Shown: positions 31,945-49,320 of the stretch, one piece after another | Layout of the letters: each line of letters starts with the position of its first letter | Position numbering within the stretch: position 1 is the stretch's first letter | Program-made: the position numbers and the translations under genes | From: Candidatus Latescibacterota bacterium | GTDB lineage: Bacteria; Latescibacterota; UBA2968; GCA-2709665 | Length of the DNA: 64,000 nt | Direction of reading: 5' to 3' | Assembly: GCA_963662665.2 (NCBI GenBank) | Contig: CAXXJS010000040.1 | Coordinates: 224,001 to 288,000, forward strand | The notes under the pieces: model-generated | What the model was told of the DNA's origin: nothing | The model's database searches: none | The model's input: the letters and a program-made list of their open reading frames with translations, nothing else

Positions 31945-32020
31945 GTAATCCCTCCCATTTGGACGAGGCAATAGCGGCAAACGGAACGAGCCGGATCCAC
32001 GTCGAGTGTCGACATTGGCG

Positions 32021-32857
32021 TTACGCCGTCAGACAGAGTCCCCCGTCAGCCGCCGTTTCGACCGGCTCGCCTCTGCCTTTTGACACCAAATTGAACCAGC
32101 ACATTCCAACCAGGACCAGAAAAACGCCGCAGACATGCAGCCACCACGGAAGCATCGTCCCTGTGCTGAAATCATCCAGTGATCCAAAAACCTCCAGGTG
32201 CGTGGACGTCACTATCAGAAAATTGTTCAACGCGTGTCCCACAATCGCTGGAAGCAGTGAACCGGACCGGACGACCCACCATGCGAATACGAGCCCCAGT
32301 ATCAGAGCCGTGGGATATCGCCACGGGTGCAGGTGAGATATAGCGAATAGCAACGCAGACCAGACAATGGCCCGATTCCGCGTTCGGTGAGCCAACAGGC
32401 CGCCCAGTATAACGCCTCTGAAGAGGACTTCCTTTACAAGCGGCGCCTGCACCACCATGGCATAAAACGTGAACATGTACGGCGTCTCTCTTCGTGCCGA
32501 CCCCCCGAACAGGTCTTGCACACTTTCGGGCACCGGTATCAGGTGCCGGAACAGATTTCCCAGGTCCGATCCAACAATTGCCAGTCCGACAACGCACACG
32601 CCGAGCGGCAGGTACAGTTGCCACGAAACGGGCTTGAGCAGCAGGATGTCGGACCACGTCCGGTCCGTTCGACGGTATGCGTACATTGCCGTCAAAATGA
32701 AACTGGCCAGTATCAAGAACTGGATTACGTAGGGACTCTTGAACAAGGGCCGGTCGAGAATGGCGCCAAGAACGCCAAACGGCAAGCCTACCACCATGCT
32801 GAACAGGAAAAACAGCACCACCAGCCAGAAGGATTGCTTTAAATTCGGATACGCCAT
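32021..32857 (-). CDS. CPBP family protein with degenerate EExxxR motif (KEVLFRG)
   Basis: FAISH and HALNN retained; first Glu replaced by Lys. Confidence 0.88.
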   Translation of the reverse strand: MAYPNLKQSFWLVVLFFLFSMVVGLPFGVLGAILDRPLFKSPYVIQFLILASFILTAMYAYRRTDRTWSDILLLKPVSWQLYLPLGVCVVGLAIVGSDLGNLFRHLIPVPESVQDLFGGSARRETPYMFTFYAMVVQAPLVKEVLFRGVILGGLLAHRTRNRAIVWSALLFAISHLHPWRYPTALILGLVFAWWVVRSGSLLPAIVGHALNNFLIVTSTHLEVFGSLDDFSTGTMLPWWLHVCGVFLVLVGMCWFNLVSKGRGEPVETAADGGLCLTA

Positions 32858-33232: not shown

Positions 33233-33503
33233 GGCTTGATATAGTAAATAACTTATTGTATATGAGCTATTTATTTTAAGAGAAGGTGACTCGAAAGCGT
33301 CCCGACGTGTAGCAAAATGCGCCGCGCTGCCTCAAGGACGATGCCGGTAGGCGCACACGGAAGGGCCATGATGTGTCGTTCATGCCTATTTGTAGCATCA
33401 GATTAAAAGGTGGCGAGAGAAAGTGATGTAATCTGCATCGCATGGCGCATCTTGCAGCGTACGGCGCCGTCGCATCAGTTCACCGAACGTCCCTGAGAGG
33501 CAT

Positions 33504-33720
33504 AAAAAAAATCCCGCATCATCCCCTCGCCATTCGGTGATGAACTTTCCTTCGGCACCCCGATTAAAGGGTGCCGGGCAGTGTCACCACTCACGCAGCT
33601 TTGAGGATGCGGGAAGGTCCTACGTATTCGCCGGGGACAAGGGAGCTACCCCTGCCCCTGAATGTCGGCTATTGTATTCGGTAGGCTACCCGACATACGG
33701 GTCCTGCCCGAGTGGTGACA
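33504..33720 (-). ncRNA. candidate structured non-coding RNA, family not recognised
   Basis: 11-bp closing helix (33710-33720 with 33582-33592), internal hairpins, crossing 9-bp pairing (33606-33614 with 33512-33520), U8 tail, TTGTTT-N17-TATATT just upstream. Confidence 0.55.
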
Positions 33721-33826
33721 ACCGAAATATAATTTCTGTGAATGACAAAAACAAGGGCAAATTTGCTTTTCTACGGAGACGGGTCGATCTGAGAGTAGCG
33801 AGGCCATAGACGCAGGCCACGTTTAA

Positions 33827-34773
33827 CCTTGATTCGCAAGTGCGCCGTGAAAAGGCGCGGAACTTCAGTGGGTGAGAGTCCCACCCGACAGATGTTGCCA
33901 CAGTCGGAAGCAATCGGAGCGGAGACGTAGGTAACGACATCTCCGAAGCCTCCGGTGTAGAGGGTCGCCAGGCGACTCGGCGAGTATGTGGGCTGAAACG
34001 TGAGTAAACGCTGAGCAGGCCTCGAAAAGGGTAATGCGGGAGCCGACCCGGCTTGCGAACGGGGAAGGCCGCCGTCGTTGGGGAAGCAGGCAACGAGAGC
34101 ACCCAACGGTCCCGCCGGGGTAATGGCGGAGGCACGCATACAAGGAGATCCGACGCAACACGGGAAGCCCCAGCGGTGGTGGAGAGCCACCAACCGGAAG
34201 CCCGTGAGGGCCAGGCCGGGCCGTATGGGGTGGCGGACAGGCTCGTAGTACCTGTGATGCCGGGTAACGCCGGCGGAGGAAAGGGGCCTGACTTCGGATG
34301 TGCTTGTGAAGGGGACAACTGTCGGGAGAGTGGCGCAAGCCTATAACCTCCTCCAGAATAAGACGAGGCGACTCCAGATCAAGCTAAGGTTTCAGGTGAA
34401 GCTGTCCGGGCAGATCGGGCAGTGTGTACCTGAAGGCGATGTCCGTCGGAGAGCCGGATGCGGTAACTCCGCACGTCCGGTTCGACGAGCGGGATGTGGA
34501 AACGGAGCAGGGAGGGGCTATTGAGGCACCGCCAGACGAAAGGGGCGGGAACAGACAGGCCACTCCTAAACCACCGCGCCACATCTCGACTCTACTTCTT
34601 CGGGGAAGTAAAACCGAATATATGCAAGTAGATAAAGGCGATTTAACTTCTGATTACCAGGATACACCAGGTCACTGGACGTGGACTGAAAAAACGTCCT
34701 TTTTAACGACCGTTACGCCCCGTTTCAGGGGTTTTCGTCGCGTTGCCGAGTTGCTGTTTTTTTCACATTGAGG
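33827..34773. mobile_element. MITE copy 1 (about 190 bp, CC...GG ends, IS1380-like), interrupted by a group II intron
   Basis: 33827-33839 plus 34596-34773 is near-identical to 46251-46442; TTAA on both sides. Confidence 0.8.
33840..34595 (+). mobile_element. ORF-less group II intron (756 nt)
   Basis: 5' GTGCG; domain V gagccggatgcggtaactccgcacgtccggttc (34451-34483); domain VI ending ctcgactctAC; EBS1 TTGCGA (34053-34058) complementary to exon TCGCAA; no RT ORF. Confidence 0.93.
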
Positions 34774-34891
34774 TTAAGAACTGTATCGCCGTGCGGGTGC
34801 GACAAAGTCACGTCAGAGAAATGATGGTTGCGTCCCGACCACTGAATTTTCGCCATGGCGGAGGGACCCGTCATCGCACCACGCCTCACAT

Positions 34892-35710
34892 CTACTCCCG
34901 GTTCTCCTTCCCGGCTTCCTGAATCGGATACCGTATGTCCGCACGCTGCAACTCACCTTGAAGCCACTGGCTGAACAGCGTGTCGCGAATTTCGCTTATG
35001 ACGCGTTCGTCCAGGGCCGCCGGATATTTCCGCTGAAGCATATACAACGCGAAACCGCCGGACGCCTTCTCAGGTCCGAAGATTTCACCTGACGAGGCCG
35101 CGAAGAGCCGTGCGGAAATCCCCCCCGGCAATTGCGCGCGACGAACGCGCCCCATATATCCGCCGGCCGGTCGGGTCCGCTCATCCTGCGAGAATTCACG
35201 GGCCAGTGCGCAAAAATCGGCCCTTTCTTCCCGCGTCTGGAGCCCGATCTCCTCAATTACCGCTCTTTCCCGGTGGAAAACCCAGCAGACCTCCGCCTCG
35301 TCGAAATCAAGCGTGTGTTGAGCGAAGTATGACTCGACCCGTCCTTCTGCGACTTTTTCAGACAGCATGCGCTCCAGCCGCCTGGCCTGGGCCTCTTCGG
35401 CCACGTCGTCCAGGGCGATCCCTCGCGAAACGAGCCATGCCTGGGTGTCTTCCACCCGTTCCAGGCGATGTCGATACCGCCAATCGTCCACGGCACGCTG
35501 GATGTCTTCGGGCGTCGCGAGAACGCCTTCCCGGACGGCAAGCTGCCGCACCAGTTCTTTGCGTGCGAATTCACCGAAAAAATCGAGTTTGTCCGCAACG
35601 CCCAGTTGACGTACGACCCGTTTGAGCGACACGTCAATGCCATTCACCCGGACCAGCGTTATTTCAAGGGCCGTGGTTGAGGATTCATCTCCCACCTGAT
35701 GCCGCATCAC
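34892..35710 (-). CDS. parvulin (PpiC-type) peptidyl-prolyl isomerase / foldase of the export locus
   Basis: F..LAREFSQD....AGGYMG.V.R..L, GEIFGP; overlaps the hlyD stop. Confidence 0.85.
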   Translation of the reverse strand: MMRHQVGDESSTTALEITLVRVNGIDVSLKRVVRQLGVADKLDFFGEFARKELVRQLAVREGVLATPEDIQRAVDDWRYRHRLERVEDTQAWLVSRGIALDDVAEEAQARRLERMLSEKVAEGRVESYFAQHTLDFDEAEVCWVFHRERAVIEEIGLQTREERADFCALAREFSQDERTRPAGGYMGRVRRAQLPGGISARLFAASSGEIFGPEKASGGFALYMLQRKYPAALDERVISEIRDTLFSQWLQGELQRADIRYPIQEAGKENRE

Positions 35711-37107
35711 ATAACCCCCGGCTGCTCAATTGACGTTTCCACGGCGTCGTACGTTGCGGACTCATACAGCTTTCTCAAAGGACTCAACAGCATCAGCAGG
35801 ACAGATTGACGGTCCGTCATGATCTCCGCTGTTCCCTTCATGCCGAACAGCAGCGGCTTCTGCTGTCCCTTTACGGCCATCGTGGTTTCTTCCAATTCAA
35901 CGAGACCCTTGAAGATCGGCCCGACGCGCTCATCGATAGTGGCATCGGGCGAAAGCTGTTTCAGCCACCCTCGTTTGATGCCGAAATCCTGAAATGCAAA
36001 TGCGTCATATTTCAGTTTTACTATCTGTCCGGGTTTAAGCAGACCCACGTCCTTGTTCAATACGGCGAGTTCGGCAACCATTGGCGCAGAGGCCGGCGCC
36101 ACTGAAATCAACGTCTGCCCCTTGCTGATCACCTGGCCCAGGGTGTTCACCATCACCTGCGTTACGATGCCCGGCTCCGGCGCCAGAATCAGGTCCGATT
36201 CGGCTTCCAACTGGCGGTCGACCCGTTTGCGCGCCTGTTCCAGTCTCAATCGCGCGGTTTCATATGCATGTCTCATCTGCGAGGTCTCGCGCCGGTGTGC
36301 GATGCGTGCTTCGAGAATCTGCCGTTTGAGATCCTGGACTGACGCCTCGTTCTTGTAGATTTCCGACATGCGTCCCGGAAGCGCCGCCAGAGCGCTGAGG
36401 TACCGCACCCGGGCACGATTGATTTCCGCAGTACTGATCAGCTTGCGTTCATATAACTTTTTCTGCTGCATGTACTCCTGTTTCAATTGATCGATTTCAG
36501 CCTGGCGAAAGCCGATTTGCGCATCCAACTCTTCGTTTATTGCGCTCCCGCCCGCGGAGTCGGCGTGACCCACGTCCGCCCGGTAATCCTGCAAGGCATC
36601 CTGATGCGCCGCCATGAACCGCTCCAGAACAGAGAGCCGTGTCTTCAATGAGGCCATCGTTTCCCGGTTCAATTCCGTCCTCTGGGGCAACACGTGGTGA
36701 AGATCGTACCTGGCCTTCCGATACGCCATTTCCGCCTGTTCCAGTTCGCGAAGGTCTCCCCAGGTTTCCCATGATTTCAGTTTGAACAGCAACTGGCCTT
36801 CTTCGATGCGATCGCCTTCCCTGACGCCAATGTGCTCGATCTCACCGCCGCGACGGGCCTGCAGCGTTTTCACCTTGCCCAGCGGAACCAATTGGAACGG
36901 CGCCGACGCCACGACGTCCACCTTTCCCCACCACGCCCAGATCACGGCGATTCCGACAAACAGAAGCACGAGATACAGCAACGCCCGCCCCCAGAACGGC
37001 CGGAGAGATCCCACGAACGCCTGCATCTCTTCTGCGCCGCCGTCCCGTACCGGGAGTACGATCGGGGACGCTGCCCCTGGCGAGGACGTCCGGGCGGGTT
37101 CTGCCAT
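35707..37107 (-). CDS. hlyD: HlyD family membrane fusion protein
   Basis: N-terminal TM helix, VREGD.I..GQ.L, coiled coil, V.LKYDAF.FQ.FG, GM.GTAEI.T. Confidence 0.92.
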   Translation of the reverse strand: MAEPARTSSPGAASPIVLPVRDGGAEEMQAFVGSLRPFWGRALLYLVLLFVGIAVIWAWWGKVDVVASAPFQLVPLGKVKTLQARRGGEIEHIGVREGDRIEEGQLLFKLKSWETWGDLRELEQAEMAYRKARYDLHHVLPQRTELNRETMASLKTRLSVLERFMAAHQDALQDYRADVGHADSAGGSAINEELDAQIGFRQAEIDQLKQEYMQQKKLYERKLISTAEINRARVRYLSALAALPGRMSEIYKNEASVQDLKRQILEARIAHRRETSQMRHAYETARLRLEQARKRVDRQLEAESDLILAPEPGIVTQVMVNTLGQVISKGQTLISVAPASAPMVAELAVLNKDVGLLKPGQIVKLKYDAFAFQDFGIKRGWLKQLSPDATIDERVGPIFKGLVELEETTMAVKGQQKPLLFGMKGTAEIMTDRQSVLLMLLSPLRKLYESATYDAVETSIEQPGVM

Positions 37108-37134
37108 AAGGCCGCATCCCTTTCTGGCGGAAGT

Positions 37135-40100
37135 TCAGACCGCCTGCAACTGCTGGCTGCACATATGAAAATAAAGACCGCGTTGAGCCATCAGTTCATC
37201 GTGCGCGCCCACATCGGCGATATGGCCCTTTTCCATGACGACAATTGTATCTGCATCCCGTACGGTGCTCAATCGATGAGCGATAACGAGCGCTGTGCGA
37301 TTTTCGAGGAATAGCGCAAGATTGGATTGAATCGCACTTTCCGAGTCGGTATCAAGCGCATTTGTCGCTTCGTCGAATATCAATATTTTCGGATCGCGAT
37401 ACAGCGCCCGGGCGATTGCAATCCGTTGCCGTTGACCGCCGGACAGTCCGATTCCCTGTTCGCCCACCTTCGTCTCGTATCCCAAAGGCATATCGCTTAC
37501 GAAATTGTGGACGCATGCCAACCCGGCTACTTCCAGCAGCCGGTCAAGATCCGCGTCGGATTCGCCCACCGCGATGTTCTCCGCAATGGTGCCGCTGAAC
37601 AGAAACGAGTCCTGCATAACCATCCCCACCTGGCGTCGGAGCCAGTGAGGATCGAAATCGCGTACGTCCATCCCGTCCAGAACCACGCGACCTTCCGAGG
37701 GATCGAACAGGCGTGGAACGAGCTTTACGAGCGTGGTCTTACCCGCGCCGCTGCGGCCGACAATGGCGACTTTCCGGCCGGGTTCCAATTCCAGGTTGAC
37801 GTTGTTCAACACGTAGGGTTCGTCGGAACCGACGGCGTACCGGAAGAACACCCCGTCGAACGCAAGCCGACCCTCGACCTGTTTCAGCCTCAGGCCGTGT
37901 CCTCGCTGGCGCGCATCCTCCATCCTCGAGTCGTAGACGTCATTCAGCCGATCCAATGCGACCCGGGCTTCCTGGACCTCCGGCCAAACGCCGATCAGTC
38001 CCATAATGGGTCCCATTACATTGCCGATGAGGGCATGGAACGCCATCAACTGACCCACCGACAACTCGCCCTCGATCACCAGGGAAGCGCCATACCACAA
38101 TATTACGGTGGAACTCAAGAGGTTGATCATACTTCCGCCCGCGCCGAACAACATCTCCATTTTCAGCCGCCGAAACCCGATCTGAATTTCCTTCGTAAAC
38201 TTGCCCTCCCACTGCCATCTCGTAACCCGCTCGACGGATTCGGCTTTCACCACGTCAATGCCATGCAGCGAATCGATCAGAACGGAAGACTGTTCCGCCC
38301 GCGCAAGGAAAGCTCGCTGGCTGAAGGACTTCAGAATAGGAGTATAGATCAGCGTCAGCCCCACGGACAGCGGCACGAATATCAACATCACGAGCGTCAA
38401 TTCCCAGTTGTAGTAGAACATCAGTCCGAGATAGACGAATAGCATGACAAAGTCGAGTATCGCCGAGATGGTGGTGTCCGTAAAGAGGCGCTGAATCGTG
38501 GCGTTTTCCTTGAACCTCGTGGTCAGATCTCCGGTACGGCGCAGTGCGAAAAACCGCATGGACAGACCCAGCAGATGCCGGTAGAAACGGGACAGCATGG
38601 TCAGGCTCAACCGGGCGCTCATATACCCGATCAGATACGCGCGCAGCGTCGAGGTGCCCATTTGGAACAGCGCCACCACGACCATGCCCGCCAGCATCAG
38701 GTTCAGGAGATCCTTATCATGGTGAACCAGCACCTGGTCGACAATCGTCTGCGTAAAGATAGGCGAGGCAAGGCCGAATAGGCTGAGTACGAGGGACGCC
38801 AGCAGCACCTCGATCAGGATGGGCGCATAGGGCTTGATCAAAGGCAGGAATCGTTTGAAGGAAGACCTGGAGGGTTCATTCTCCGCAACCTGGTCCGTAT
38901 ATTCCAACAACAGCGCCATGTTGGTCCAGCTTTTCTCGAACTCCGGACGCTTCAACCGTCGAAGGCCCAAACCGGGATCGGCTATTCTCACCTCCTTTTT
39001 GGTGATTTCATACAACACAACGAAGTGGTTGCCTTCCCAGTGCAGTATCGCCGGCAGTCCGGTCCGCATCAGCGCTTCATAGCCCGTTCGCACGCCCCGC
39101 GTGACAAACCCCAGCGTCTCCGCCGCCTCAGCCAATGCCGCCATCGACGTACCGTCCCGAGACACGTTGCACATATCGCGCAGCCTGTTCAGTCCGATCG
39201 GCATCGTGTAATACTTGCAGATCATCCCCAGACACGCTGCGCCGCAATCGGACTGATCGTTCTGTTTCAGGAAGGGAAAACGAAACGACGTTGGCGCCGC
39301 CTGTCTAACTTCATCCGTATCGCGATCCCCGTTACCGGATGGCCGACCGTTCGTCTCAGCCAGATTGCTCCCGTCCGGCCCTCCCGCCGCGATCCGAGTT
39401 CCGGTGCGTCGCGTCGGGGAAGACAGCGACCTGTCCGATTCCTGCTCCGGGGGCAATCGCCGGGCTGCCTCGCGCAGGGACACCAATGCTGGAATTGCAT
39501 AGCTGAGGCGATCGAAGTCGTCTCTTTCCAAATAATAGATAACGCAATCCCCCCGACCGCGGATCGTCCTCGGCTCGCCGCGCGAAGCATCCGTATCCTC
39601 GAAAAAATCACCCGCGACCAGCGTCAGCGCACGACCATCCTCCGAGGCTACTTCCAACTGACCCTTGCCCACCAGGCAGAACCGCCCGCGCGAGCGACCG
39701 GGTTCCGAAACGGTCGTTCCATCCGCGACGTCTGCGCGCGTCATTCGCCGTAACAGCTCTCCCCACGCGTCTCCCGGGACAGACCCTTTCAGATACCGGG
39801 TGAAGTTCCGAAAGGCGATGTTCCTGACATGGTCCTGGAGATGCGCCTTCAGTTCCGGTTCTCTCTTCAACACCTTGAAGAATTCATCCAGGGGTACCCG
39901 CAGCACACTGGAGTCCTCAACCGCGCGCACCGTCGCCCGATGCCCGTCGCCTGTAAGCAGCGCCCCTTCGCCGAAGTGATCGCCGGCGTACAGAAAGCCC
40001 AGGGTTTCCGGTTGGCCATCCGCACTCTGCTTGATCACCCTCAATCGACCCGACTGAAGAATGCAGAAGACATCACCGGTTCCCCCTTGATCGAAGACGA

Positions 40101-40170
40101 CCGACCCGAAAGGAAACCGAACGGACTCTGACTGAACGGACTCTTCTAAAAACGGGGACAAGACGTCCAT
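37135..40170 (-). CDS. peptidase-containing ABC transporter (cNMP-like domains + C39 + TMD + NBD)
   Basis: GDHFGEGALL; QNDQSDCGAACL, HFVV, ADP catalytic triad; GRSGAGKT, LSGGQ, DEAT, AHRLST. Confidence 0.95.
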   Translation of the reverse strand: MDVLSPFLEESVQSESVRFPFGSVVFDQGGTGDVFCILQSGRLRVIKQSADGQPETLGFLYAGDHFGEGALLTGDGHRATVRAVEDSSVLRVPLDEFFKVLKREPELKAHLQDHVRNIAFRNFTRYLKGSVPGDAWGELLRRMTRADVADGTTVSEPGRSRGRFCLVGKGQLEVASEDGRALTLVAGDFFEDTDASRGEPRTIRGRGDCVIYYLERDDFDRLSYAIPALVSLREAARRLPPEQESDRSLSSPTRRTGTRIAAGGPDGSNLAETNGRPSGNGDRDTDEVRQAAPTSFRFPFLKQNDQSDCGAACLGMICKYYTMPIGLNRLRDMCNVSRDGTSMAALAEAAETLGFVTRGVRTGYEALMRTGLPAILHWEGNHFVVLYEITKKEVRIADPGLGLRRLKRPEFEKSWTNMALLLEYTDQVAENEPSRSSFKRFLPLIKPYAPILIEVLLASLVLSLFGLASPIFTQTIVDQVLVHHDKDLLNLMLAGMVVVALFQMGTSTLRAYLIGYMSARLSLTMLSRFYRHLLGLSMRFFALRRTGDLTTRFKENATIQRLFTDTTISAILDFVMLFVYLGLMFYYNWELTLVMLIFVPLSVGLTLIYTPILKSFSQRAFLARAEQSSVLIDSLHGIDVVKAESVERVTRWQWEGKFTKEIQIGFRRLKMEMLFGAGGSMINLLSSTVILWYGASLVIEGELSVGQLMAFHALIGNVMGPIMGLIGVWPEVQEARVALDRLNDVYDSRMEDARQRGHGLRLKQVEGRLAFDGVFFRYAVGSDEPYVLNNVNLELEPGRKVAIVGRSGAGKTTLVKLVPRLFDPSEGRVVLDGMDVRDFDPHWLRRQVGMVMQDSFLFSGTIAENIAVGESDADLDRLLEVAGLACVHNFVSDMPLGYETKVGEQGIGLSGGQRQRIAIARALYRDPKILIFDEATNALDTDSESAIQSNLALFLENRTALVIAHRLSTVRDADTIVVMEKGHIADVGAHDELMAQRGLYFHMCSQQLQAV

Positions 40171-40459
40171 TATTTCGTTCCTGTAAGTTGTAGGACTATG
40201 CGACAGTCCGCATATAACTCGATGTCCGCCAGGAGGCCGCGCACAAATTGCCGACTATGCGTCCGGTCAGGTTCACGGGACATCCCGTCGGAGACGGCTT
40301 ATCCTGCGCCCGGCGTTCTGTTTTCGTTTGCCGCTTTGAAATGCGCCAATTCCGTCAAGTATATACCATATATAGTATGCACACGTGCGTCAGCGACCGA
40401 TCGCCAGGCCTGAGAACCCCGTGGCCGATGTGGTTGGGATCAAAGCCTTCAGTGTCCCA

Positions 40460-41308
40460 TTAGCTCCTAACTGCGTCCGACTCGGCATCCGCAGGCGGAT
40501 CCAGGCCCAGGGAAATCTGTTGTGTGTCGTTTGAAACCCGGTAAAACCACCACAGTCCAAGAGCAGCCAACAGCATCCCCGACGCACTCCACCACCAGGG
40601 ATTGAACGCAACTTCGTTAAGGTCTCCTGAAATGTCCAAATGACGAGAATAAAAATGTATAGCGGTCACGGCGATGAGGTTGTTCAACGCGTGCCCGAAC
40701 AACGCCGGCAGCAGTGACCCGGTACGGATTACCCACCAGGCCCAGACAACGCCCGATCCAACAATAGGCGCCAGTTTCCAGAGATCCAGATGCATCGCAC
40801 CAAACAGAACCGCCGTCCAGATAATGGCGGAAGGCCTTGTATGATGCGCCAGCAGACCGCTCAGGATAATTCCCCTGAACAGCAACTCTTCCCCGAACGG
40901 AGCCACTATGACTGCTCCGAACAGCGCAGACATAAAGGATGTTCTGCTGAAGATCTCCAAACGATAGATCTCTTGTATCCACTCCGGCACAGGAACGATG
41001 CGAGTCACGACTTTCATCAATTCAGTATCGAGCATCCCCAGACCGACTACTGAAATTGCAACGCAGGGCCATACCCGCGAATCAAAATCCCTGTTGAACA
41101 GATGCCGTACGTATTTCCAGTCCAGATCGGCGCGGCGATACACGTAGCCCAGAATGACAACGAAATTTGCAAATAACAGAATTCCCAGCACGAAGTCGTC
41201 GTCCAGCTGCCACCCGTCAACAATGGCCACAGGAATTGCCAAAACTGCCTGAACCAGCAGGAATAAAACCAACAGCCAAATCGCCTGCCTCAGGTTCGGA
41301 TATGCCAT
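40460..41308 (-). CDS. CPBP (Abi/CAAX) intramembrane metalloprotease
   Basis: EELLFRG, FGAMH, HALNN; shared MAYPNL start. Confidence 0.9.
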   Translation of the reverse strand: MAYPNLRQAIWLLVLFLLVQAVLAIPVAIVDGWQLDDDFVLGILLFANFVVILGYVYRRADLDWKYVRHLFNRDFDSRVWPCVAISVVGLGMLDTELMKVVTRIVPVPEWIQEIYRLEIFSRTSFMSALFGAVIVAPFGEELLFRGIILSGLLAHHTRPSAIIWTAVLFGAMHLDLWKLAPIVGSGVVWAWWVIRTGSLLPALFGHALNNLIAVTAIHFYSRHLDISGDLNEVAFNPWWWSASGMLLAALGLWWFYRVSNDTQQISLGLDPPADAESDAVRS

Positions 41309-41405
41309 CGACGTCTTACCAGATTTCGTGGCCGGCCTTGATTGATGGCAATCAGTGCGTTCAAGCATGATCTTTCCTGGATTCGTTTCGGATCGTTAGG
41401 CGATC

Positions 41406-41514
41406 TCAATCTGCGGGAGATTCCCCTTCCGGCCAGATGAAACATCCTGGTTTCGATGGGTGATCCAGAACCCACAGGTAGGCGGGGAAATTCTGAACCT
41501 TGAAAATAGGTCAA
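41406..41514 (-). pseudogene. C-terminal remnant of a DUF3267 paralog
   Basis: LTYF/KVQNFPAYLWVLDHPSKPGCFIWPEGESPAD (one frameshift) matches LTYFRVQDYRSDLWVKDHPSEPGCFIWPDGQTPFE of 43651-44256. Confidence 0.75.
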
Positions 41515-41652
41515 CTGAGTTCTTACATCGTTATCGGGCTACCCCGCAGGCGATCCGATATCGACATTAATGTATTCGTCTCCCAAAGCGTTCGGGAAAC
41601 GGCAGAGCTTTGGAATCAACCAACCCCTTGAAGCGTGTTCAGATACGCATGC

Positions 41653-42465
41653 TTACAGTGCGGGCGTCTCCCCGGCGGGAAATATGATGAAACCCACTTC
41701 CGACGGGTGATCCTGAATCCATCTGTCATTGTCATATCTGCGAGCCCTTAATAAAACCATGACATCTCCCGCACACCCGGCGAATGTAACACTCAAGAGC
41801 AAGACCGACCAGATCGCGGGATCCCACAACAGCACCAAACCAGCAACGGGTGCGGTAACTATCATCGGCAAGACCGCGAATACCCGGAAAGCGCAGACCT
41901 TCATCGGTCTGTCGGCGTGACAGTACAGCGCCCCCAATCGCCAATTGATTCCAAAGTGCAGCGATCTTATTGGGACTCTTGCCCAAGTCAACGCGGCAAG
42001 GCCGTGAATCGCTTCGTGAGTCACAAACAGGGCGATTATACATCCAATCAATTTCCATAGATCGGCGAGCGGGAATTGCAACTCAATTGCCCAGAGAAGC
42101 AAGGCATCTACCACGACGATAGACATTCCCGAAAACCATAACATCAAAAAGGACAGGTTGTGGATATCTTCTTTGTAAAATACCACTTCGGAGACCTTTT
42201 GATTCTCGGCCGTATCTATTTCGCCCGTGCTCGCCTCAAGGAGTACGGAGAGTGCGGTCACCATTCCCGCTGCAGTTACGAAGAATTTTCCTCGGAAGAT
42301 AATAAACGAGACTGCCTGAACAACCAGGACCGCCAGCAGAATGGCTAATTCGATTTGAAAGACGTATCTGAGAATCAGCATGGCAGGCAAAACGGAAAAT
42401 AACCCGTACAATATAGCCGTGAGAATCCAACGACTCCACATTCCCCCTGGGAGGAAATCCTTCAT
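41653..42465 (-). CDS. DUF3267 putative membrane zinc protease with extra N-terminal TM helices
   Basis: HEAIHG, FG.NW...YCH, GD, IQDHPSEVGF. Confidence 0.82.
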   Translation of the reverse strand: MKDFLPGGMWSRWILTAILYGLFSVLPAMLILRYVFQIELAILLAVLVVQAVSFIIFRGKFFVTAAGMVTALSVLLEASTGEIDTAENQKVSEVVFYKEDIHNLSFLMLWFSGMSIVVVDALLLWAIELQFPLADLWKLIGCIIALFVTHEAIHGLAALTWARVPIRSLHFGINWRLGALYCHADRPMKVCAFRVFAVLPMIVTAPVAGLVLLWDPAIWSVLLLSVTFAGCAGDVMVLLRARRYDNDRWIQDHPSEVGFIIFPAGETPAL

Positions 42466-42563
42466 CCGGGAACTCCGATCTTATGTCAATCGACTCTTTT
42501 ATAGGGCAGGTGCGTGCCTCCTGATCTGTTCCTGGCATAAATCGAGAAACAGCCGGACAGCGG

Positions 42564-43418
42564 CTATTCGCTTTCTCCTGGCGTTTCTCCCGTCTCAATC
42601 GCGTCCGGTGCGGCTGATTTGGTGTTTTGAGAAACCCGGTAAAACCACCACAGTCCAAGAGCAGCCAGCGCCACCCCGGTTGCACTGAACCACCAGGGAT
42701 TGAAAACCACGACGTTCAGGTCTTCTGCCACCTCGAAATATGGTATTTCGAAACGCAAAGCCGTCACTCCAATGAAATTGTTCAATGCGTGGCCGACCAG
42801 AGCAGGCCACAAGGATCCCGTCCGGATATACCACCAGGCGAATACGAACCCGTACAGTAGGGCCGGGGGAAATTGCCAGGGGTTCAGATGGCCCACGCCA
42901 AACAGAAATGCCGACCAGAAAATCGCCCGGTTCCTGGTATAGTGTGCCAGCAAACCGGTAAATATCGCGCCTCTGTATAGTAACTCTTCGACGGACGGTG
43001 CGACAAACACTGCACGGAATACGGCTGAGGAATAAGATGTCTTGCGCCCGAACTCCGATCCAAAAATATCCTGGATGAAATCGGTCATCGGAATTAGGCG
43101 AATCACCACTTTGTCCAATTCCAATAGAACCATCCCCAGGCCAACGATCGAAATTGCCACACAAGGCCATACGCGCCAATCAAAGTCCGTATTCACCATT
43201 TGCGATAGGTCTTTCCATGTTCGATCCGTGCGGCGGAAGACATAACGCAAGAAAACGTAATAAACCACCAGAGTTAGACCTCCAGTCAAGAGGTTTTCGT
43301 GTCGAAAACTCTCGCCAAGGATGGTCTGTACAAAGTGGATGATGAGTCCCAAGACAAATTGTGTTATCCAGAATAGTACCACTAACCAGATGGACTGCCG
43401 CAAGTTCGGATACGCCAT
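42564..43418 (-). CDS. CPBP (Abi/CAAX) intramembrane metalloprotease
   Basis: EELLYRG, FGVGHLNPWQ, HALNN. Confidence 0.9.
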   Translation of the reverse strand: MAYPNLRQSIWLVVLFWITQFVLGLIIHFVQTILGESFRHENLLTGGLTLVVYYVFLRYVFRRTDRTWKDLSQMVNTDFDWRVWPCVAISIVGLGMVLLELDKVVIRLIPMTDFIQDIFGSEFGRKTSYSSAVFRAVFVAPSVEELLYRGAIFTGLLAHYTRNRAIFWSAFLFGVGHLNPWQFPPALLYGFVFAWWYIRTGSLWPALVGHALNNFIGVTALRFEIPYFEVAEDLNVVVFNPWWFSATGVALAALGLWWFYRVSQNTKSAAPDAIETGETPGESE

Positions 43419-43650
43419 TCGAATATCCTATCATTAGACGTCACGGACCGTTGTTTCCCGTGTGGCCGGAAACTCTAACCGGATCGTGCCTAGAGAAAAA
43501 AGCGACGCAACATTATGTTCTGGAAAAACCATTTACACTACAATCTGCCCGTTCCTCCAGCCTGCCTAATAACCTGAGAGATTGCGAGCGATAAAATGCA
43601 CATAGAGCCGATTTCTCCGCAGCGGCTCCTCTCCGCCGCGCAAGGCTGAA

Positions 43651-44256
43651 TCACTCGAATGGGGTCTGCCCGTCCGGCCAGATGAAACATCCAGGTTCTG
43701 ACGGGTGATCTTTTACCCACAGGTCGCTACGATAATCCTGGACCCTAAAATACGTCAATACATCTGCTGCACTGGCCGAAAATGCTAGACAGAACAAAAA
43801 AAGTGTCCAGATGGCCGGATCCAACAAAAGCACAAGACCGGTCACCGCCGTGGTGACCCCGAGAGGCAGAAGCAAAAAGACACGAAACGCACCCATCCTT
43901 ATCGGTCGCGAAAAATGGCAATAGGGGGCGAGCCATTTCCATTTGAATCCGAAACGAATCGAACTGAATGGGACGTTGCCCCACTGCAATGCGGCAAAGG
44001 CGTGTAGCGCCTCATGAAAGACGACGACCAGAATTGCGCAAGCCAGAAACATCCAGCGGTCGCGATTGGTGAAGCGGAAATCGATTTCCCATAAATTGAC
44101 CATCTCGCCTACGAAAACAAGAGTAGAAGCGAACCAGAACATTACTAAGGAAAAAACGACCATATAGACTTTGTTTACGCGTACCTCAAGAATCTCGTGC
44201 CCGATCTTATCTCGATCGCGAAATCGCCCCGAATCGACCTCATCATTCGTCGGCAT
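43651..44256 (-). CDS. DUF3267 putative membrane zinc protease
   Basis: HEALH, FGFKWKWLAPYCH, DHPSEPG; GAGGA RBS before MPTNDE. Confidence 0.82.
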   Translation of the reverse strand: MPTNDEVDSGRFRDRDKIGHEILEVRVNKVYMVVFSLVMFWFASTLVFVGEMVNLWEIDFRFTNRDRWMFLACAILVVVFHEALHAFAALQWGNVPFSSIRFGFKWKWLAPYCHFSRPIRMGAFRVFLLLPLGVTTAVTGLVLLLDPAIWTLFLFCLAFSASAADVLTYFRVQDYRSDLWVKDHPSEPGCFIWPDGQTPFE

Positions 44257-44471
44257 TTCATCCTCACGCTTCCGTGTCCGAATCAAGATTGCAACACCTG
44301 CCAGGTTTCGTGATTGTGACACTCGGATGATGGAAATCCGGAGCCGCAAAGCAGGGAAGCATTGGAGACTTCTCGAATGGCAACGGCGTCAGGACCGGTG
44401 CAGGCTCCCAAATGCGAACCCACACCGGTCGCGTCAGACACTGGCTACGGGATCTTTCCGACTTGTCGCTC

Positions 44472-44765
44472 TCAGAGATTCGACATCCCGTCAGCCATGC
44501 CGGACATTAGGTCGCCGGCGACGAAGTCGAGGGCGTCGCGGGCCCTGTCGTAATACCATCTAGCAGTTTCAGGTATTCCTGTCGGATTAGTAACAATATT
44601 GACGGCGAGACCAACAACAAAACCGACAAATATCGGATTCAGTCCGCCTGATATTTCGGCCATGAATTGTTCACTTAACACTTCTTGCTTCGTTGGCAGG
44701 GCCGTACTCACAGAGAATCCGTAATTGCCATTTGTCGCCAATGGAATAGCCAATCCATGAGTCAT
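44472..44765 (-). CDS. double-glycine leader peptide precursor (41-aa leader, 56-aa core)
   Basis: AGGAGG RBS; leader ends LPTKQEVLSEQFMAEISGG; hydrophobic core LNPIFVGFVVGLAVNIV... Confidence 0.85.
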   Translation of the reverse strand: MTHGLAIPLATNGNYGFSVSTALPTKQEVLSEQFMAEISGGLNPIFVGFVVGLAVNIVTNPTGIPETARWYYDRARDALDFVAGDLMSGMADGMSNL

Positions 44766-45193
44766 GATGTCCTCCTGAAGAGTTAATGGGACTTGCTGTT
44801 TTGCATCAAATTAACCCGAATCGTCACGTTACGGTAGCGGTGTCTATTCCCGACGGTCATTGGGTTCAAGAATCGTGTTGTACTCTTCGTCGGGATGTCA
44901 GATCCCGTGCTCCTTCGATAACCTTAGCGGTCGATCTGCGTCTGATTATCCAGGATCCACCGGACCCCAATGTAACATGGACCGACGCTCTATCACGGCC
45001 TTTCTCGGCCGCTTCGGCGAGGCCCCGGCAGGACCCGTCGCCCGACACTGAATGCAACTTGGGCAATTCTTCGTTGGATTGAATTGTGGACGATTCCATG
45101 TGGGTTCACGGAATCTTCTGAGAAGCCAACTACATCAGTAGTCGATTTCGGCAGGATAAATTACTTTCCGCCTGACAGACCCCACACTCGATT

Positions 45194-45394
45194 TCAGTCG
45201 TCGAAATAATCGACGATGGCCTCTACCGCCATTATGACAAGGCTCGTCCTTAAAAAACCTCCCCCAACGGGTAACAAACCAATTCCACCAGATGCATTCC
45301 TCATTTCGCGCCGCACAAGATTGGTTTCCCGACCTGGAAGTTGGGCACAGTTCGCGAAGGCCTGCACGGGTTGCAGCTGAATTCGCTCTGTCAT
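45194..45394 (-). CDS. double-glycine leader peptide precursor (37-aa leader, 29-aa core)
   Basis: AAGGA RBS; leader ends LPGRETNLVRREMRNASGG; core IGLLPVGGGFLRTSLVIMAVEAIVDYFDD. Confidence 0.75.
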   Translation of the reverse strand: MTERIQLQPVQAFANCAQLPGRETNLVRREMRNASGGIGLLPVGGGFLRTSLVIMAVEAIVDYFDD

Positions 45395-45475
45395 TTCACC
45401 ACGTCCTTTCTGTTTTGTTTCTGTTATGAACACGTGAGTTTTCCATCCGAACTTTATCTAAGTGCTTCAACTCCA

Positions 45476-45682
45476 CTACAGGACCGGACCGGACGACCTG
45501 TCCGGCTCCGGCAACGTTACGCCGAAAATTTCAGCGACCAGATCTCTGATGAGGCGCCCAAGCCCGGCGTCTCCACCGGAGATTTGCGCGGTCTGCCAGG
45601 CGGTCAAGTCCTCCGTCTGAATCGGCAACCGAGACGGAATTCCGGAAGCGTCCGCAGGGCCTGATACAATTCGTCTGCTCAT
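45476..45682 (-). CDS. double-glycine leader peptide precursor (37-aa leader, 31-aa core)
   Basis: AAGGAGGTGAT RBS; leader ends LPIQTEDLTAWQTAQISGG; core DAGLGRLIRDLVAEIFGVTLPEPDRSSGPVL. Confidence 0.82.
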   Translation of the reverse strand: MSRRIVSGPADASGIPSRLPIQTEDLTAWQTAQISGGDAGLGRLIRDLVAEIFGVTLPEPDRSSGPVL

Positions 45683-45910
45683 GTCTATCACCTCCTTTCG
45701 TCGACATCCCCGCGATATCCAGTCCGTCTCCATTATCTCTGTTCGTGTAGCTGGATCCGCATCGCTGAGATGCCTTGATGTCCGAAGCGCTTCGTATGCC
45801 TCTTTTGCGATTACGGCACACGCCCCGATCGGGCGGCTTCGGTTGCAAATATCGGCAATTACCTGTTACGCGACACCCGCTGCCGGTGACTCCGTCGACG
45901 CATTGAACTC

Positions 45911-45925
45911 GCAAGGATTGTGCCA
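45911..45925 (-). promoter_or_regulatory. sigma54 (-24/-12) promoter of the precursor operon
   Basis: Minus strand TGGCAC-AATCC-TTGC, a consensus match about 230 bp upstream of the first precursor. Confidence 0.75.
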
Positions 45926-46250: not shown

Positions 46251-46442
46251 CCTTGATTCGCAATTCTTCGGGGAAGTAAAACCGAATATATGCAAGTAGA
46301 TAAAGGCGATTTGACTTCGAATTACCAGGATACACCAGGTCACTGGACGTGAACTGAAAAAACGTCCTTTTTTGACGACCGTTACGCCCCGTTTCAGGGG
46401 TTTTCGTCTCGTCGCCGAGTTGCTGTTTTTTTCTAATTGAGG
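46251..46442. mobile_element. MITE copy 2 (192 bp, intron-free allele)
   Basis: ccttgattcgcaa|ttcttcggggaag...aattgagg; direct repeat of copy 1. Confidence 0.8.
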
Positions 46443-46830
46443 CTAAACATTGACTGACGCCAGATTCCGACTGAACCGGCGCCCGGCGAGGTCCGGTTCA
46501 GTTGCTCGACGTCGATTTTCGCCATTCCCGGCATCGCATCCATCACTGCCGATGGATCGCGCTCCTTCAGCTGCGGAACTGCCTGTACTAAAATGGTAAG
46601 GCCCCTCGCTCGACCGTTACGATAATACAATCAAACGTCGCGGGTTGCGTAGACGCAGTCCCGCCAGCGACATCCCGTTACTGTTGCCGAGGTTCGGGGA
46701 TATCGTTAAACTTGGTAAGACTGACACAGAGCAGTCCGCATCGCATTCTTGAAATGAAGCAACGGAGCGACAGCGTCAGGTATCGCATCAGGGACCCTGT
46801 CACGCCACCACACGCAACCCGACGACATCT

Positions 46831-47271
46831 ATGCGACGATACCGAAAATTCCTGTCACCGACGTACGTAAAATTCGTGATCACCGGCCTATCGGGCGTGT
46901 TTGTCAATCTCGGTTCGTTTCAGATGATGCTGAGTCTCGGTGTGCACGAATTGCTGGCGTCGCCGATTGCGATCGAGCTGTCGATCATCTCGAATTTCCT
47001 GCTCAACAACTACTGGACCTTCCGTTACCGCGCGCTGGCCGAAAAAAAACGCGTTCGGGGCTTGAAGTATCACTTCGTTTCGCTGCTGACCCTGTTGCTC
47101 AGCTACGGCACGTTCGTATTGCTTTCCTTCCTCTTTCCGGATGTGCCGCTGGTGATCCTGCAGGGATGCGCGATCGCACCGGCCGGCGTACTCAACTACT
47201 CCGCCAATTCTCTTTGGACGTTTCGCGAGGCGCCTCCTGAGGGTAAAGACGATGTCCGGAACGGAGCCTGA
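46831..47271 (+). CDS. GtrA family protein
   Basis: KF.I.G.SG..VN, NF..N..WTF, four TM helices. Confidence 0.9.
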   Translation: MRRYRKFLSPTYVKFVITGLSGVFVNLGSFQMMLSLGVHELLASPIAIELSIISNFLLNNYWTFRYRALAEKKRVRGLKYHFVSLLTLLLSYGTFVLLSFLFPDVPLVILQGCAIAPAGVLNYSANSLWTFREAPPEGKDDVRNGA

Positions 47272-49320
47272 TGGTTCGCGCACACGCCGGAAATGAGTCG
47301 TTCGACCCGATCCGCGACGGCATCGCGCTGGCTGCGTCCCTGGTCGCACCGCTCGTGCTGTATGTACTGACGATGCCGCGCACCGTTGTCCTGGAGGACG
47401 ACGGGCTGTTTCTGATGGCTGGTGCGCACCTGGGCGTGGCCCACCCCCCCTGGATATCCGCTCTATACGCTCATTGTCTATCTCTTCACGCAATTGCCCT
47501 TCGGCAATGCCGCCTTCCTCGGCCATTTGTCCAGCGCGGTACTGGGCGCGCTTGCGTGCGGCTGCCTCTACGCGTGCGGTCGTCTGATTGGCGCCTCGTC
47601 CATTCCCGCCCTCTCCGCCTCCCTGCTGTTCGCCGCCTCGGAACACTTCTGGTCTCAGGCCATTGTCACCGAGGTCTATACGCTCAATGCGCTGCTTTTC
47701 TTCGGGCTTTACGCGCTGCTCCTGTTCGGTATCCGCCAACCTCACCGTAACGGCATCTGGATCATCGCCGCCGCGGCTTACGGATTGAACCTGGCCAATC
47801 ACGTGCCGCTGACCGTGCTATCAACGCCGGGACTCGTGTTGCTGGCCTTTACCGTTCGGCGGACACTGTACAAGAAGCTCCCGATACTCTTCACCATTCT
47901 CGTGTGTTGCGCGGCATTGCCCTATGCATGGATGGTATGGCGGTCGCATCAGAACATTCTGATCAATTTCTACGGCTCGATCGATACCCTGAAGGACTTC
48001 TGGTTCTACTTCAGCCGCCAGGGGTATATCGAAGTCGATATCAGTCCCAGCGCGGGGTGGGACGACCGGTTCAAGTTCATGCAGTGGCTTGGCAACGAGT
48101 TCCTGTGGCAATTGACGCTGCCGGGATTCGCGCTCGCAGTCTTAGGCCTGGTCATCCTGTTCCGGAGGCGACAGGCCGCAATTGCCTGGTCCGGAGCGTT
48201 GGTCTTTCTCACGAACAGCATCGTGCTGATTGTACTGCTGCGCTTCGATTTTGACTTCTTCCAGGTTGCGGTTTTCCGGCCCTATTCACTGTCGTGCTAC
48301 GGCATCCAGGCGTTGTGGCTGGGAATCGGTTTGCAGGTTGCTCATGCCTGGCTGGCAGGAACCGTCTCCGCCAAAACAGGCCATGGGCCGAAGTTGAAAA
48401 TATGCGTGGCAACGCTCTTCGGGATCGTTCTCGTCTGGTGGTCTGTCATTTCTCACTGGCAGTCCAACGACAGAGCGGACAGCGACTTCGCAAAGCGGTA
48501 TGCTGAAGTGCAACTGGACCTGTTGCCGGAAGACGCTATCCTCTTTGTCTTCGGAGATACAACCGGCCCTATCGGCTACTATCGATACGTCGAAAACCGG
48601 CGTCCTGACGTCACACTATACAATCTGCAGGGTCTGGTATACGGCAAACGCCTCTTCGGCCCCTTCCTGCCAAAAGGCAAGAGGAAAGAAGCACTCGAAC
48701 AATTCATCGATTCTACCGATAAAAGGCTCTTTTTTCCAGTGGACGTCGATATCTACCCCAGCCGTCAGTTCCGGCTCTACGGCTTTCTCATGGAAGCTGT
48801 CAGGGACGGCCAACCCGGGAACATAAAGCTCAAGTACCACCCGCGCAGCGATGATTTCTTCGTTCAACTCACCGCACGACAACCGGTTGATCGCTGGGAA
48901 CGCGTCCGGAGAAACGAACTGTTGTTCCATTACGGGAGATACCTGGGATTGGTTGGGTTTACGGGCGACCCGATAGGCAAGCGAATGCAGGAATCACTCC
49001 GTCTAGTTGAAGGAAGCTACGCCTCTCTGCTCGGTCTGGCCTCCGTCGTCCTGGACAACGGTAACAGCGCCAACTGGGATCAGGTATCGGCGTGGCTGGC
49101 TAAGGCTGAGAACCTGAAGCATGAAGCACTCAAGAAGAAATCGCTGGCACAGCTATACTACCTGAAGGGAAACCTGTTGCAGAAGCAGGGTCAGACGAGT
49201 GCCGCCATCAGGGCTTTCAGGATGTCACTGGACGTATATCCTCATCCCGAAAACACGTCGTCCGATGCCCTCGATCAATACCGGATTGACTTCAAGCGGG
49301 TCAAACAGCCGCCTCGATAG
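47271..49320 (+). pseudogene. DUF2723 (TMEM260-like) membrane glycosyltransferase, frameshifted in a C7 run
   Basis: LGVAHPP in one frame continues as PPGYPLY...FWSQA...EVYTLN in another; C7 at 47444-47450 where C6 restores HPPGYP; C-terminal TPR. Confidence 0.85.

Follow-up and report, generated by a model that had tools for sequence, protein, structure and literature searches.

A conserved double-glycine peptide export locus with intramembrane protease genes in Latescibacterota: a possible microcin-type bacteriocin system

What does a bacterium with two membranes export through a double-glycine peptide locus that also encodes two families of intramembrane proteases, and do these proteases make the peptides or disarm them? 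The question is raised by a minus-strand gene set at positions 34892-45925 of the window, i.e., the whole stretch of 64,000 nucleotides (nt) analyzed here, from contig CAXXJS010000040.1 of a Candidatus Latescibacterota bacterium (assembly GCA_963662665.2). An earlier note on this DNA had listed here a promoter, three peptide precursors, DUF3267 and CPBP membrane proteases, a peptidase-containing ATP-binding cassette transporter (PCAT) with cyclic nucleotide monophosphate (cNMP)-binding-type domains, an HlyD-family adaptor, and a parvulin; by Pfam and open reading frame (ORF) analysis, the complete gene set is present on the minus strand. The reading we favor, with a probability of roughly 0.5, is that the locus specifies a multi-peptide bacteriocin system of the class II microcin type, particular to this lineage and equipped with cognate proteolytic immunity. 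This proposal is suggested at the level of sequence by three precursors with leaders of one rare family, by an exporter with an intact leader peptidase, and by the coupled variation of one peptide type with an adjacent DUF3267 gene.

Precursors, promoter, and export machinery

In order of transcription, the features of the locus are as follows; the last two lie downstream of the stretch covered by the earlier note.

45911-45925, minus strand: sigma-54-type promoter element TGGCAC-N5-TTGC (motif search), 229 nt upstream of the pre1 start codon
45476-45682, minus strand: pre1, precursor of 68 residues, type A1 (ORF, Shine-Dalgarno-like stretch, leader profile E 2e-15)
45194-45394, minus strand: pre2, precursor of 66 residues, type B (ORF, Shine-Dalgarno-like stretch, leader profile E 1e-17)
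44472-44765, minus strand: pre3, precursor of 97 residues, type C1 (ORF, Shine-Dalgarno-like stretch, leader profile E 3e-10)
43651-44256, minus strand: short DUF3267 protein, 201 residues (PF11667, E 4.9e-14); start chosen from database gene calls, the longest ORF extending to 44349
42564-43418, minus strand: CPBP (Rce1-like) protein, 284 residues (PF02517, E 4.9e-21), with EExxxR, FxxxH, and HxxxN motifs
41653-42465, minus strand: long DUF3267 protein, 270 residues (PF11667, E 7.7e-13), with HEAIH at residues 150-154 and Asp234
about 41370-41504, minus strand: remnant of another short DUF3267 gene, comprising its 3′ end (repeat and tblastn), with an in-frame stop
40460-41368, minus strand: CPBP (Rce1-like) protein, 302 residues (PF02517, E 5.4e-19), with all three motifs
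37135-40170, minus strand: PCAT, 1011 residues (Pfam cNMP_binding in two stretches, Peptidase_C39, ABC_membrane, ABC_tran)
35707-37107, minus strand: HlyD-family type I secretion adaptor, 466 residues (TIGR01843, 216 bits against a cut-off of 208.65)
34892-35710, minus strand: parvulin-like, SurA/PrsA-like protein, 272 residues (Rotamase, E 1.9e-09); start overlapping the HlyD stop by 4 nt
32021-32857, minus strand: third CPBP gene (PF02517, E 4.2e-18)
31090-31980, minus strand: fourth CPBP gene (PF02517, E 5.7e-19)

The three small ORFs behind the promoter element encode double-glycine precursors, as had been proposed. Their leaders end in ISGG (pre1), ASGG (pre2), and ISGG (pre3), and a Shine-Dalgarno-like stretch stands ahead of the ATG in each. 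The pre1 peptide combines a 37-residue leader with a 31-residue amphipathic core, and pre2 a 37-residue leader with a 29-residue hydrophobic and acidic core, whose best 19-residue Kyte-Doolittle window reaches 1.63. In pre3, a 41-residue leader precedes a 56-residue core devoid of cysteine, in which a predicted transmembrane helix comes first and a conserved tail last; the Kyte-Doolittle value of core residues 1 to 19, 1.65, is a hydropathy estimate only. The three leaders can be aligned with one another without internal gaps and, together with those of relatives, yield a consensus of 37 to 41 residues, M-x-[RD]-R-I ... L-P-x-[RQ]-x-E-x-L ... S-G-G. When a profile of this leader was run against the 90,966 stop-to-stop frames of the genome, it retrieved exactly pre1 to pre3, the next best frame scoring E 0.018, whereas curated leader models (NHLP, Nif11, TIGR01847) did not respond, no NCBIfam or Pfam family reaching E <= 0.01 for any of the three precursors. 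In the window and 20 related loci (21 loci), the profile identified 58 distinct frames; the Gly-Gly site is retained in all but a few of them, and the exceptions end in D-G. The leader family is rare: a search of 1.84 billion cluster representatives brought up 59 proteins (E <= 0.001). Of these, 55 are shorter than 200 residues, and the leader lies at or near the N terminus in all 27 that were inspected. The pre3 peptide itself is represented by only two clusters among 5.8 billion proteins, and homologues of pre1 occur in 14 of the 14 same-genus loci examined, window included. Given the specificity of the leader profile, the conservation in relatives, and the lack of a match to curated models, the small ORFs can be taken as genuine, conserved genes whose leaders constitute a rare family of their own. 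Conservation of these ORFs had been set in the earlier note as a point on which its proposal could fail; the homologues are kept in relatives.

While the leaders are conserved, the cores are hypervariable and fall into at least six types. Types A1 and A2 (about 30 residues) are amphipathic; types B, B2, and B3 (about 25 to 40 residues) are hydrophobic and then acidic; types C1 and C2 have a predicted transmembrane helix at the N terminus and a conserved tail behind it; type D consists of a helix and a Cys-rich C terminus; type E is glycine-zipper-like; and type F is acidic, with Cys first. The window contains the set A1, B, and C1. A helix-like segment immediately after Gly-Gly is also seen in many further members of the leader family. 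Precursors of a type that ends in a Cys-rich tail and two basic residues are absent from the window and are found in four related loci (L016:10332-10694, L022:10350-10637, L026:10552-11085, and L028:10559-10921), where they adjoin long DUF3267 or CPBP genes; conceivably, a CPBP protein trims the Cys-rich tail. A fourth precursor was considered in the 428-nt gap between pre2 and pre3, which holds an ORF of 77 residues (44866-45099), and was rejected: the ORF has no leader match, its frame is closed in the homologous spacer of a related locus (L024), and the three codon positions differ little in their number of substitutions (16/22/18).

The element TGGCAC-N5-TTGC ahead of pre1 is the only such match in the window and one of 25 in the whole genome. 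In 13 of 13 same-genus loci it is retained ahead of the first precursor; in a second genus and in the sister family, the motif lies before the first glycosyltransferase gene of the locus. A promoter had been noted at this end of the locus, and an element is indeed present near 45925, but its type is sigma-54, a sigma-70 scan returning nothing there. Counts from the sigma-70 promoter and intrinsic-terminator scans did not exceed those in shuffled sequence, and nothing usable was obtained upstream of pre1. In the bacteriocin reading, a sigma-54-dependent promoter would drive the three precursors, which would remain unmodified and share the one double-glycine leader.

The catalytic triad of the PCAT peptidase domain is intact, as the earlier note had stated. 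Cys309, His382, and Asp398 align with the triad of PCAT1 (4ry2) and with that of a stand-alone double-glycine protease domain, and the catalytic Cys occupies the position of the residue mutated to Ala in entry 7n87. No other C39 domain is present in the genome. The first cNMP-type domain features FGEGALL at residue 66 and HRATV at residue 77, a G-E...R-A stretch that we take to be phosphate-binding-cassette-like. Genes for TolC-like proteins of the OEP family are located on other contigs of the genome and, with LptD encoded in the window, double-glycine peptide export can be placed in a diderm, in agreement with what had been proposed. The C39 domain would cut the precursors after Gly-Gly, and PCAT, HlyD, and a TolC-like channel encoded elsewhere would export the cores across both membranes.

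Taken together, double-glycine leaders, a PCAT with intact C39 domain, HlyD, TolC-like genes elsewhere, membrane proteins encoded after the peptides, and the lack of modifying enzymes in the locus are shared with class II microcins. The colicin V layout combines a double-glycine precursor with a PCAT (CvaB), an HlyD-family protein (CvaA), TolC, and an immunity protein of the inner membrane encoded alongside (PMC12219008), and the export core of the present locus very likely follows it. The differences concern the accessory parts. The leaders form a separate, longer family (37 to 41 residues), there are two cNMP-type domains in PCAT, HlyD is joined by a translationally coupled, cytoplasmic SurA-like protein, and the host belongs to an uncultured Latescibacterota lineage. 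The candidate immunity genes, moreover, encode catalytically intact intramembrane proteases, not small non-enzymatic proteins; the verified class II microcin immunity proteins are encoded adjacent to the microcin gene, do not exceed 216 residues, and span the inner membrane (PMC12219008). For the cNMP-type domains, a precedent is offered by HetC of Nostoc PCC 7120, a PCAT whose cNMP domain binds ppGpp in vitro (PMC10986499). There, too, such a domain lies N-terminal to C39 in the ABC exporter of a diderm, in contrast to which the present transporter has two of them and adjacent cargo genes. The two domains probably gate export via a small-molecule signal.

The parvulin-like protein contains one parvulin domain and has no signal peptide, membrane anchor, or N-terminal hydrophobic segment. 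Its AlphaFold2 model (mean predicted local distance difference test [pLDDT], 81.9) was matched by Foldseek to SurA (2pv3, E 4e-9) and PrsA over both the chaperone and the parvulin parts, with E values from 3e-9 to 5e-7. A pair of His residues marks peptidyl-prolyl isomerase activity in parvulins, and the second His of this pair is replaced here: Ala221, which is invariant in 16 relatives, aligns with the His of the SurA motifs G-F-H and G-W-H. The protein may act as a cytoplasmic chaperone for hydrophobic precursors, which it would keep export-competent, or as a partner of PCAT. The nearest curated family is TIGR04500, which it misses with a score of 93.2 bits against a cut-off of 180; profile positions 82-335 are matched and the N-terminal 81 are not, and none of 41 relatives exceeded the cut-off. 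The SurA-like protein of that family, MirC, stabilizes a graspetide ligase as its partner in rosaritide biosynthesis (PMC13097080). In both cases a cytoplasmic, SurA-like, parvulin-related protein is encoded beside a PCAT in a peptide cluster, but the N-terminal 80 profile residues, which resemble a recognition element for peptides that are made by ribosomes and modified post-translationally (RiPPs), are absent here. The genome also has no ATP-grasp ligase, so that the partner, if any, must be the precursors or PCAT.

DUF3267 and CPBP proteases and their relation to the peptides

Both DUF3267 proteins have the catalytic residues, namely HExxH with an Asp further on, and these do not vary in alignments of 16 and 26 relatives; the short protein, which scores above the PF11667 cut-off, has HEALH at residues 81-85 (H81, E82, H85) and Asp165, invariant in 26 sequences. 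The long protein has two extra N-terminal hydrophobic helices. For the AlphaFold2 model of the short protein (pLDDT 87.5), VIA-align returned site-2 proteases (S2P) as four of the top five matches, namely, SpoIVFB (Z 7.4, rmsd 3.0, 106 aligned residues), RseP (Z 6.3), mjS2P (Z 5.5), and Aquifex RseP (Z 5.4), all in the range below 8 where a common helical arrangement can be the cause. Foldseek retrieved nothing from the PDB at E <= 0.001, with 3b4r at E 0.74. The fold matches, middling as their Z scores are, agree with the published placement of DUF3267/TmcP in the S2P clan (PMC13712780). Putatively, the short DUF3267 protein is an intramembrane metalloprotease of the S2P-like kind, with pre3 as its cognate partner.

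This partnership is suggested by the arrangement and variation of the genes. A short DUF3267 gene follows a C-type (pre3-type) gene in 10 of 10 loci, at a distance of 109 to 421 nt. Within the genus, core allele C1 occurs with DUF3267 cluster D3 in three of three loci and C2 with D4 in four of four, while C2-like cores of other genera are accompanied by DUF3267 cluster D2 or D7. Across eight loci (28 pairs), the pairwise identities of C-type cores and adjacent DUF3267 proteins correlate with r 0.82, the Mantel p of 0.0008 overstating the significance since the relatives are not independent; over the same eight loci, the correlation of core identity with PCAT amounts to r 0.61 and that with the next CPBP to r 0.29. 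Compared with a related locus (L021), the window has a PCAT of 85% and a CPBP of 89% identity, yet the core and the DUF3267 protein are only 49% and 52% identical. This bimodal, matched pattern of identities shows, as far as the comparison of loci goes, that the C-type peptide and DUF3267 have been exchanged as one cassette. Of the proposal that DUF3267 and CPBP proteases act as paired factors, the pairing of DUF3267 with its peptide is borne out by adjacency and by cassette-wise co-variation; the CPBP genes do not co-vary with pre3, so that a module pairing DUF3267 with CPBP is not supported.

A second association links cores of type D with the long form: long DUF3267 genes accompany them in six of six loci, directly adjacent in four of these, and the long-DUF3267 cluster varies with the D-core subtype. 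In relatives the long gene thus lies beside D-type (Cys-tailed) precursors; in the window it is an orphan. Such orphans are recurrent. The long gene occurs without a D-type peptide in seven loci, the window included, and intact D3-type DUF3267 genes, with HExxH and Asp kept, are found without a C1 peptide in L017 and L025. The remnant noticed earlier in the window proved real by tblastn, which matched it to the C terminus of the short DUF3267 protein (63% identity over 30 residues, E 1.7e-13) and to the orphan copy of L017 (67% over 45 residues, E 1e-20), and by its in-frame stop. Intact short DUF3267 copies occupy the same position in L017, L018, and L025. Conversely, one locus (L027) contains an A-type peptide and no DUF3267 gene at all. 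Complex prediction for the short DUF3267 protein (alignment of 26 rows) with pre3 (8 rows) gave no answer (score 0.01) and counts neither way.

All four CPBP genes score above the cut-off of PF02517. The motifs EExxxR, FxxxH, and HxxxN are present in three of them, and the third gene (32021-32857) has no strict EExxxR; of 13 same-genus loci, 12 have a homologue of this third gene downstream of the one for the parvulin-like protein. An association of CPBP clusters with A1 and A2 cores was considered and not adopted: CPBP cluster C1 is present in seven of seven A1 loci but also in four of eight A2 loci, and CPBP cluster C3 in four of eight A2 loci and one of seven A1 loci, which is suggestive only. 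In Firmicutes, CPBP/Abi proteins are reported to serve as bacteriocin immunity factors (Kjos et al. 2010, J Bacteriol 192:2068). Rce1-like domains with conserved motifs inside a double-glycine peptide locus, with extra copies nearby, resemble that situation; the diderm host, the lack of CPBP-peptide pairing, and the presence of DUF3267 proteases alongside set the present locus apart.

In the bacteriocin reading, the DUF3267 (S2P-like) and CPBP proteases would protect the producer from the antibacterial activity of its own peptides, each recognizing, and probably cleaving, a particular core in the inner membrane.

Immunity, maturation, and other explanations

Several points weigh against this reading. 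With intergenic gaps of 215 to 430 nt, the genes may or may not form one operon. We know of no S2P-clan protease that serves as an immunity protein. No clear pairing of CPBP with any peptide type emerged when the related loci were compared. A gene for RpoN, searched for by its sigma-54 DNA-binding domain, was not found in the 92%-complete assembly; since rpoN is present in five of five complete relatives and activators of sigma-54 are encoded in the genome by no fewer than 11 genes, an assembly gap is the likelier cause. In homologous loci from a second genus and from the sister family, GT4/GT28 and GT1 glycosyltransferase genes immediately precede those for the precursors, on account of which the ancestral product may have been modified. 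Finally, the sole characterized DUF3267 protein, TmcP, is a maturation protease for a bacteriocin precursor bearing a transmembrane helix (PMC13712780).

The last point leads to the strongest competing explanation, in which DUF3267 and/or CPBP would trim helix precursors inserted in the inner membrane (pre3, perhaps pre2) before PCAT exports them, the proteases being biosynthetic. The model is provided by the TMcin clusters of Bacillota and Actinomycetota, which comprise TmcA, TmcP (i.e., DUF3267, the leader peptidase), TmcE, TmcBC, and TmcD (PMC13712780, PMC12328743); there, a precursor inserted in the membrane, with a transmembrane helix in its mature part, has its leader cleaved off by TmcP, a four-helix DUF3267 protein (PMC13712780). 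The present locus shares with these clusters an ABC exporter and a DUF3267 protein with HExxH and distal Asp beside a peptide whose mature part begins with a helix. Maturation is further favored by the restriction of DUF3267 pairing to helix-first cores (the short form with type C and the long one with type D), by the invariance of the catalytic residues, by the helix-like segment right after Gly-Gly in many members of the leader family, and by the fold matches to SpoIVFB, RseP, and mjS2P. However, PCAT C39 is intact and the conserved Gly-Gly falls precisely where the helix starts, so that there seems to be no need for another leader peptidase, and neither the intact orphan DUF3267 genes without a peptide nor the A-type peptide of L027 without any DUF3267 fits the scheme. 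Furthermore, TMcin loci combine a peptidase-less ABC transporter with peptides that have two conserved Cys residues, joined by a disulfide in the mature peptide (PMC13712780), whereas the pre3 core is free of Cys. In place of the peptidase-less TmcBC, the present locus has a double-glycine leader, a C39-containing PCAT, and HlyD; it lacks a DsbA-like gene and a Cys pair in pre3, and it differs from TMcins also by several peptide types per locus, a diderm host, and orphan DUF3267 copies. No TmcE-like small gene with two helices was recognized in the gaps in a limited search that drew on codon-position substitutions in one spacer. On balance, maturation is a serious but rather unlikely alternative. 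Immunity is favored over it because orphan copies exist, diversification proceeds by cassettes, a further leader peptidase would be superfluous next to an intact C39 domain, locus L027 is free of DUF3267, and Abi/CPBP proteins offer a precedent; intact orphan DUF3267 copies are what one would expect of immunity genes, but not of a maturase dedicated to one peptide.

With the microcin layout, HetC, and TmcP as precedents, the statement in the earlier note that no characterized system has this architecture was too strong (PMC12219008, PMC10986499, PMC13712780). At the same time, the literature searched, in which subscription journals are mostly uncovered, yielded neither a published locus combining DUF3267, CPBP, and PCAT nor any account of DUF3267 outside the TMcin work.

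It is improbable that the peptides undergo hidden modification, either by enzymes encoded elsewhere or by the divergent GtrA- and PMT-like genes, so that a RiPP or a glycopeptide would result; such a product would be compatible with either role of the proteases. The locus of the window genome contains no tailoring enzyme, as had been observed before. Neither the locus nor the 92%-complete genome gave a match to YcaO or to the graspetide ATP-grasp ligase (TIGR04187), which speaks against modification; a LanC profile search was uninformative, the control matching in no control genome either. Two genes for SPASM-domain radical SAM proteins on other contigs of the genome count in its favor, as do the length of the leader (37 to 41 residues) with a conserved LP-x-R-x-E-x-L beyond what C39 usually reads, and the glycosyltransferases of the sister family and second genus, which stand behind the same sigma-54-type motif as the precursors here. 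These glycosyltransferases, however, have no close homologue in the window genome (best match, 31% over 161 residues) or in the 13 same-genus loci. Conserved divergent neighbors of the locus in the genus, likewise cited for modification, are a GtrA gene (46831-47271) and a TMEM260/PMT-like gene (47422-49320), both on the plus strand, but enzymes of the GtrA and PMT type normally act on envelope glycans or on proteins outside the cytoplasm. The description of the peptides as unmodified therefore stands for this genus and not for the system as a whole, given the glycosyltransferases in the sister family and the second genus. The loci bearing these genes (L031:1084-5228, L033:9105-11810, and L029:8013-12015) often have cores that start with Cys, a hint that peptides may be glycosylated in these lineages.

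Less probable still is that the peptides serve as cell-cell signals or developmental cues, exported under nucleotide gating as proposed for HetC and processed or degraded by the proteases: sigma-54 control would suit such a role, and in Firmicutes peptide pheromones are processed by proteases of the CPBP (MroQ) and S2P (Eep) kinds, but no receptor kinase or response regulator is encoded in the locus of this genus, and hypervariable cores, several peptides per locus, and allele-specific as well as orphan partners are the usual marks of diversifying toxins and their immunity proteins rather than of a signal, which has to fit its receptor.

Genomic setting and significance

The window genome is assembled in 66 contigs and is 92% complete; its two DUF3267 genes both lie in the locus. 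Synteny of the locus is preserved in 14 of 14 same-genus genomes examined (window included), and variants exist in the sister family. The 13 other same-genus loci occupy the same chromosomal place, with GtrA and the PMT-like gene on one side and CPBP on the other. Across the genus, PCAT, HlyD, and the parvulin-like protein are 72 to 87% identical (PCAT, 80 to 87%), while identities of 40 to 94% are seen for DUF3267 and CPBP proteins, which also differ in how many there are and how they are arranged; the chromosomal position is thus fixed, and cargo and membrane-protein cassettes vary between species. In one same-genus locus (L059, G014:C1:4364500-4384499), PCAT is broken into N-terminal fragments and the parvulin-like protein is truncated, with four precursors, DUF3267, and CPBP retained.

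Among 41 genomes of the same order, including that of the window, 34 contain a relative of the parvulin-like protein and 28 a DUF3267 gene. Of the 42 DUF3267 matches in these genomes, 36 share a contig with a parvulin-like match no more than 20 kb away, and five of the six exceptions come from assemblies of 100 to 820 contigs. In a sample of the phylum, DUF3267 was detected in 41 of 168 genomes; it is concentrated in the two families of the order (14 of 21 and 17 of 31 genomes), against 9 of 115 elsewhere. Near the DUF3267 genes of other Latescibacterota families (L054-L058, L062), the contigs at hand, which are short, showed neither a PCAT nor a leader peptide. The closest relatives of the window's DUF3267 protein in a species-representative collection came from 18 loci, 13 from Latescibacterota/Latescibacteria metagenome-assembled genomes, three from Gemmatimonadota, one from an "uncultured bacterium," and one from Sedimentisphaerales.

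Direct repeats of 180 nt on both sides of the locus (34596-34777 and 46264-46446) were considered as the ends of an island and rejected in that role, since BLASTN located 78 matches spread over 28 contigs of the genome and synteny of the locus holds throughout the genus. The repeat is interspersed and contains hairpins, and intron copies without an ORF abut one of its ends. One such group II intron of about 777 nt lies on the plus strand at 33823-34600, between the locus and the candidate RNA described below. Its domains D1-D4 were matched by Rfam at 33866-34003, and a match to domains V/VI at 34449-34595 remained below the cut-off. Eight copies of the ORF-less intron at >=99.6% identity are present in the genome, and three longer copies encode a reverse transcriptase-maturase (L063:797-2167). 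Between the parvulin-like gene and the next CPBP gene, a minus-strand stretch of about 250 to 280 nt (33465-33745) is 84 to 92% identical at the DNA level in 12 same-genus loci and thereby more conserved than the flanking proteins. It is preceded by a promoter-like pair, TTGTCA / TATATT, and followed by a T-run, and its predicted fold consists of a long rod and a hairpin with 57 pairs, three of which show compensatory changes. It belongs to no Rfam family, the weak match to sRNA-Xcc1 scoring 27.6 bits against a cut-off of 53. We regard this stretch as a candidate for a new small RNA.

What is already known in the present locus is the export core, which is ordinary, and the DUF3267 family as such; what is new is the unusual and well-conserved accessory set and its occurrence in an uncultured phylum. 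Tentatively, the system may be pictured as one in which every helix-bearing double-glycine peptide has a cognate partner, an S2P-like DUF3267 protein that cuts this peptide in the producer's own membrane, the family having switched from making a toxin to disarming one, and in which a SurA-like chaperone feeds a nucleotide-gated PCAT. If the bacteriocin reading is true, it would give Latescibacterota, a phylum without a cultured member, a testable peptide-based competition system. DUF3267, for which one function is known, namely, the removal of TMcin leaders (2025-26), would gain a second, independent setting, with helix peptides in a bacterium that has an outer membrane. Proteolytic immunity would be new for the S2P clan, and the system would be a diderm counterpart of TMcins. 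The natural pairs C1-D3 and C2-D4, together with the orphan copies, provide a direct handle on the recognition of peptides by an intramembrane protease, and the 59 cluster representatives of the leader family, with their diverse cores, constitute a small library of candidate membrane-active peptides served by one transporter.

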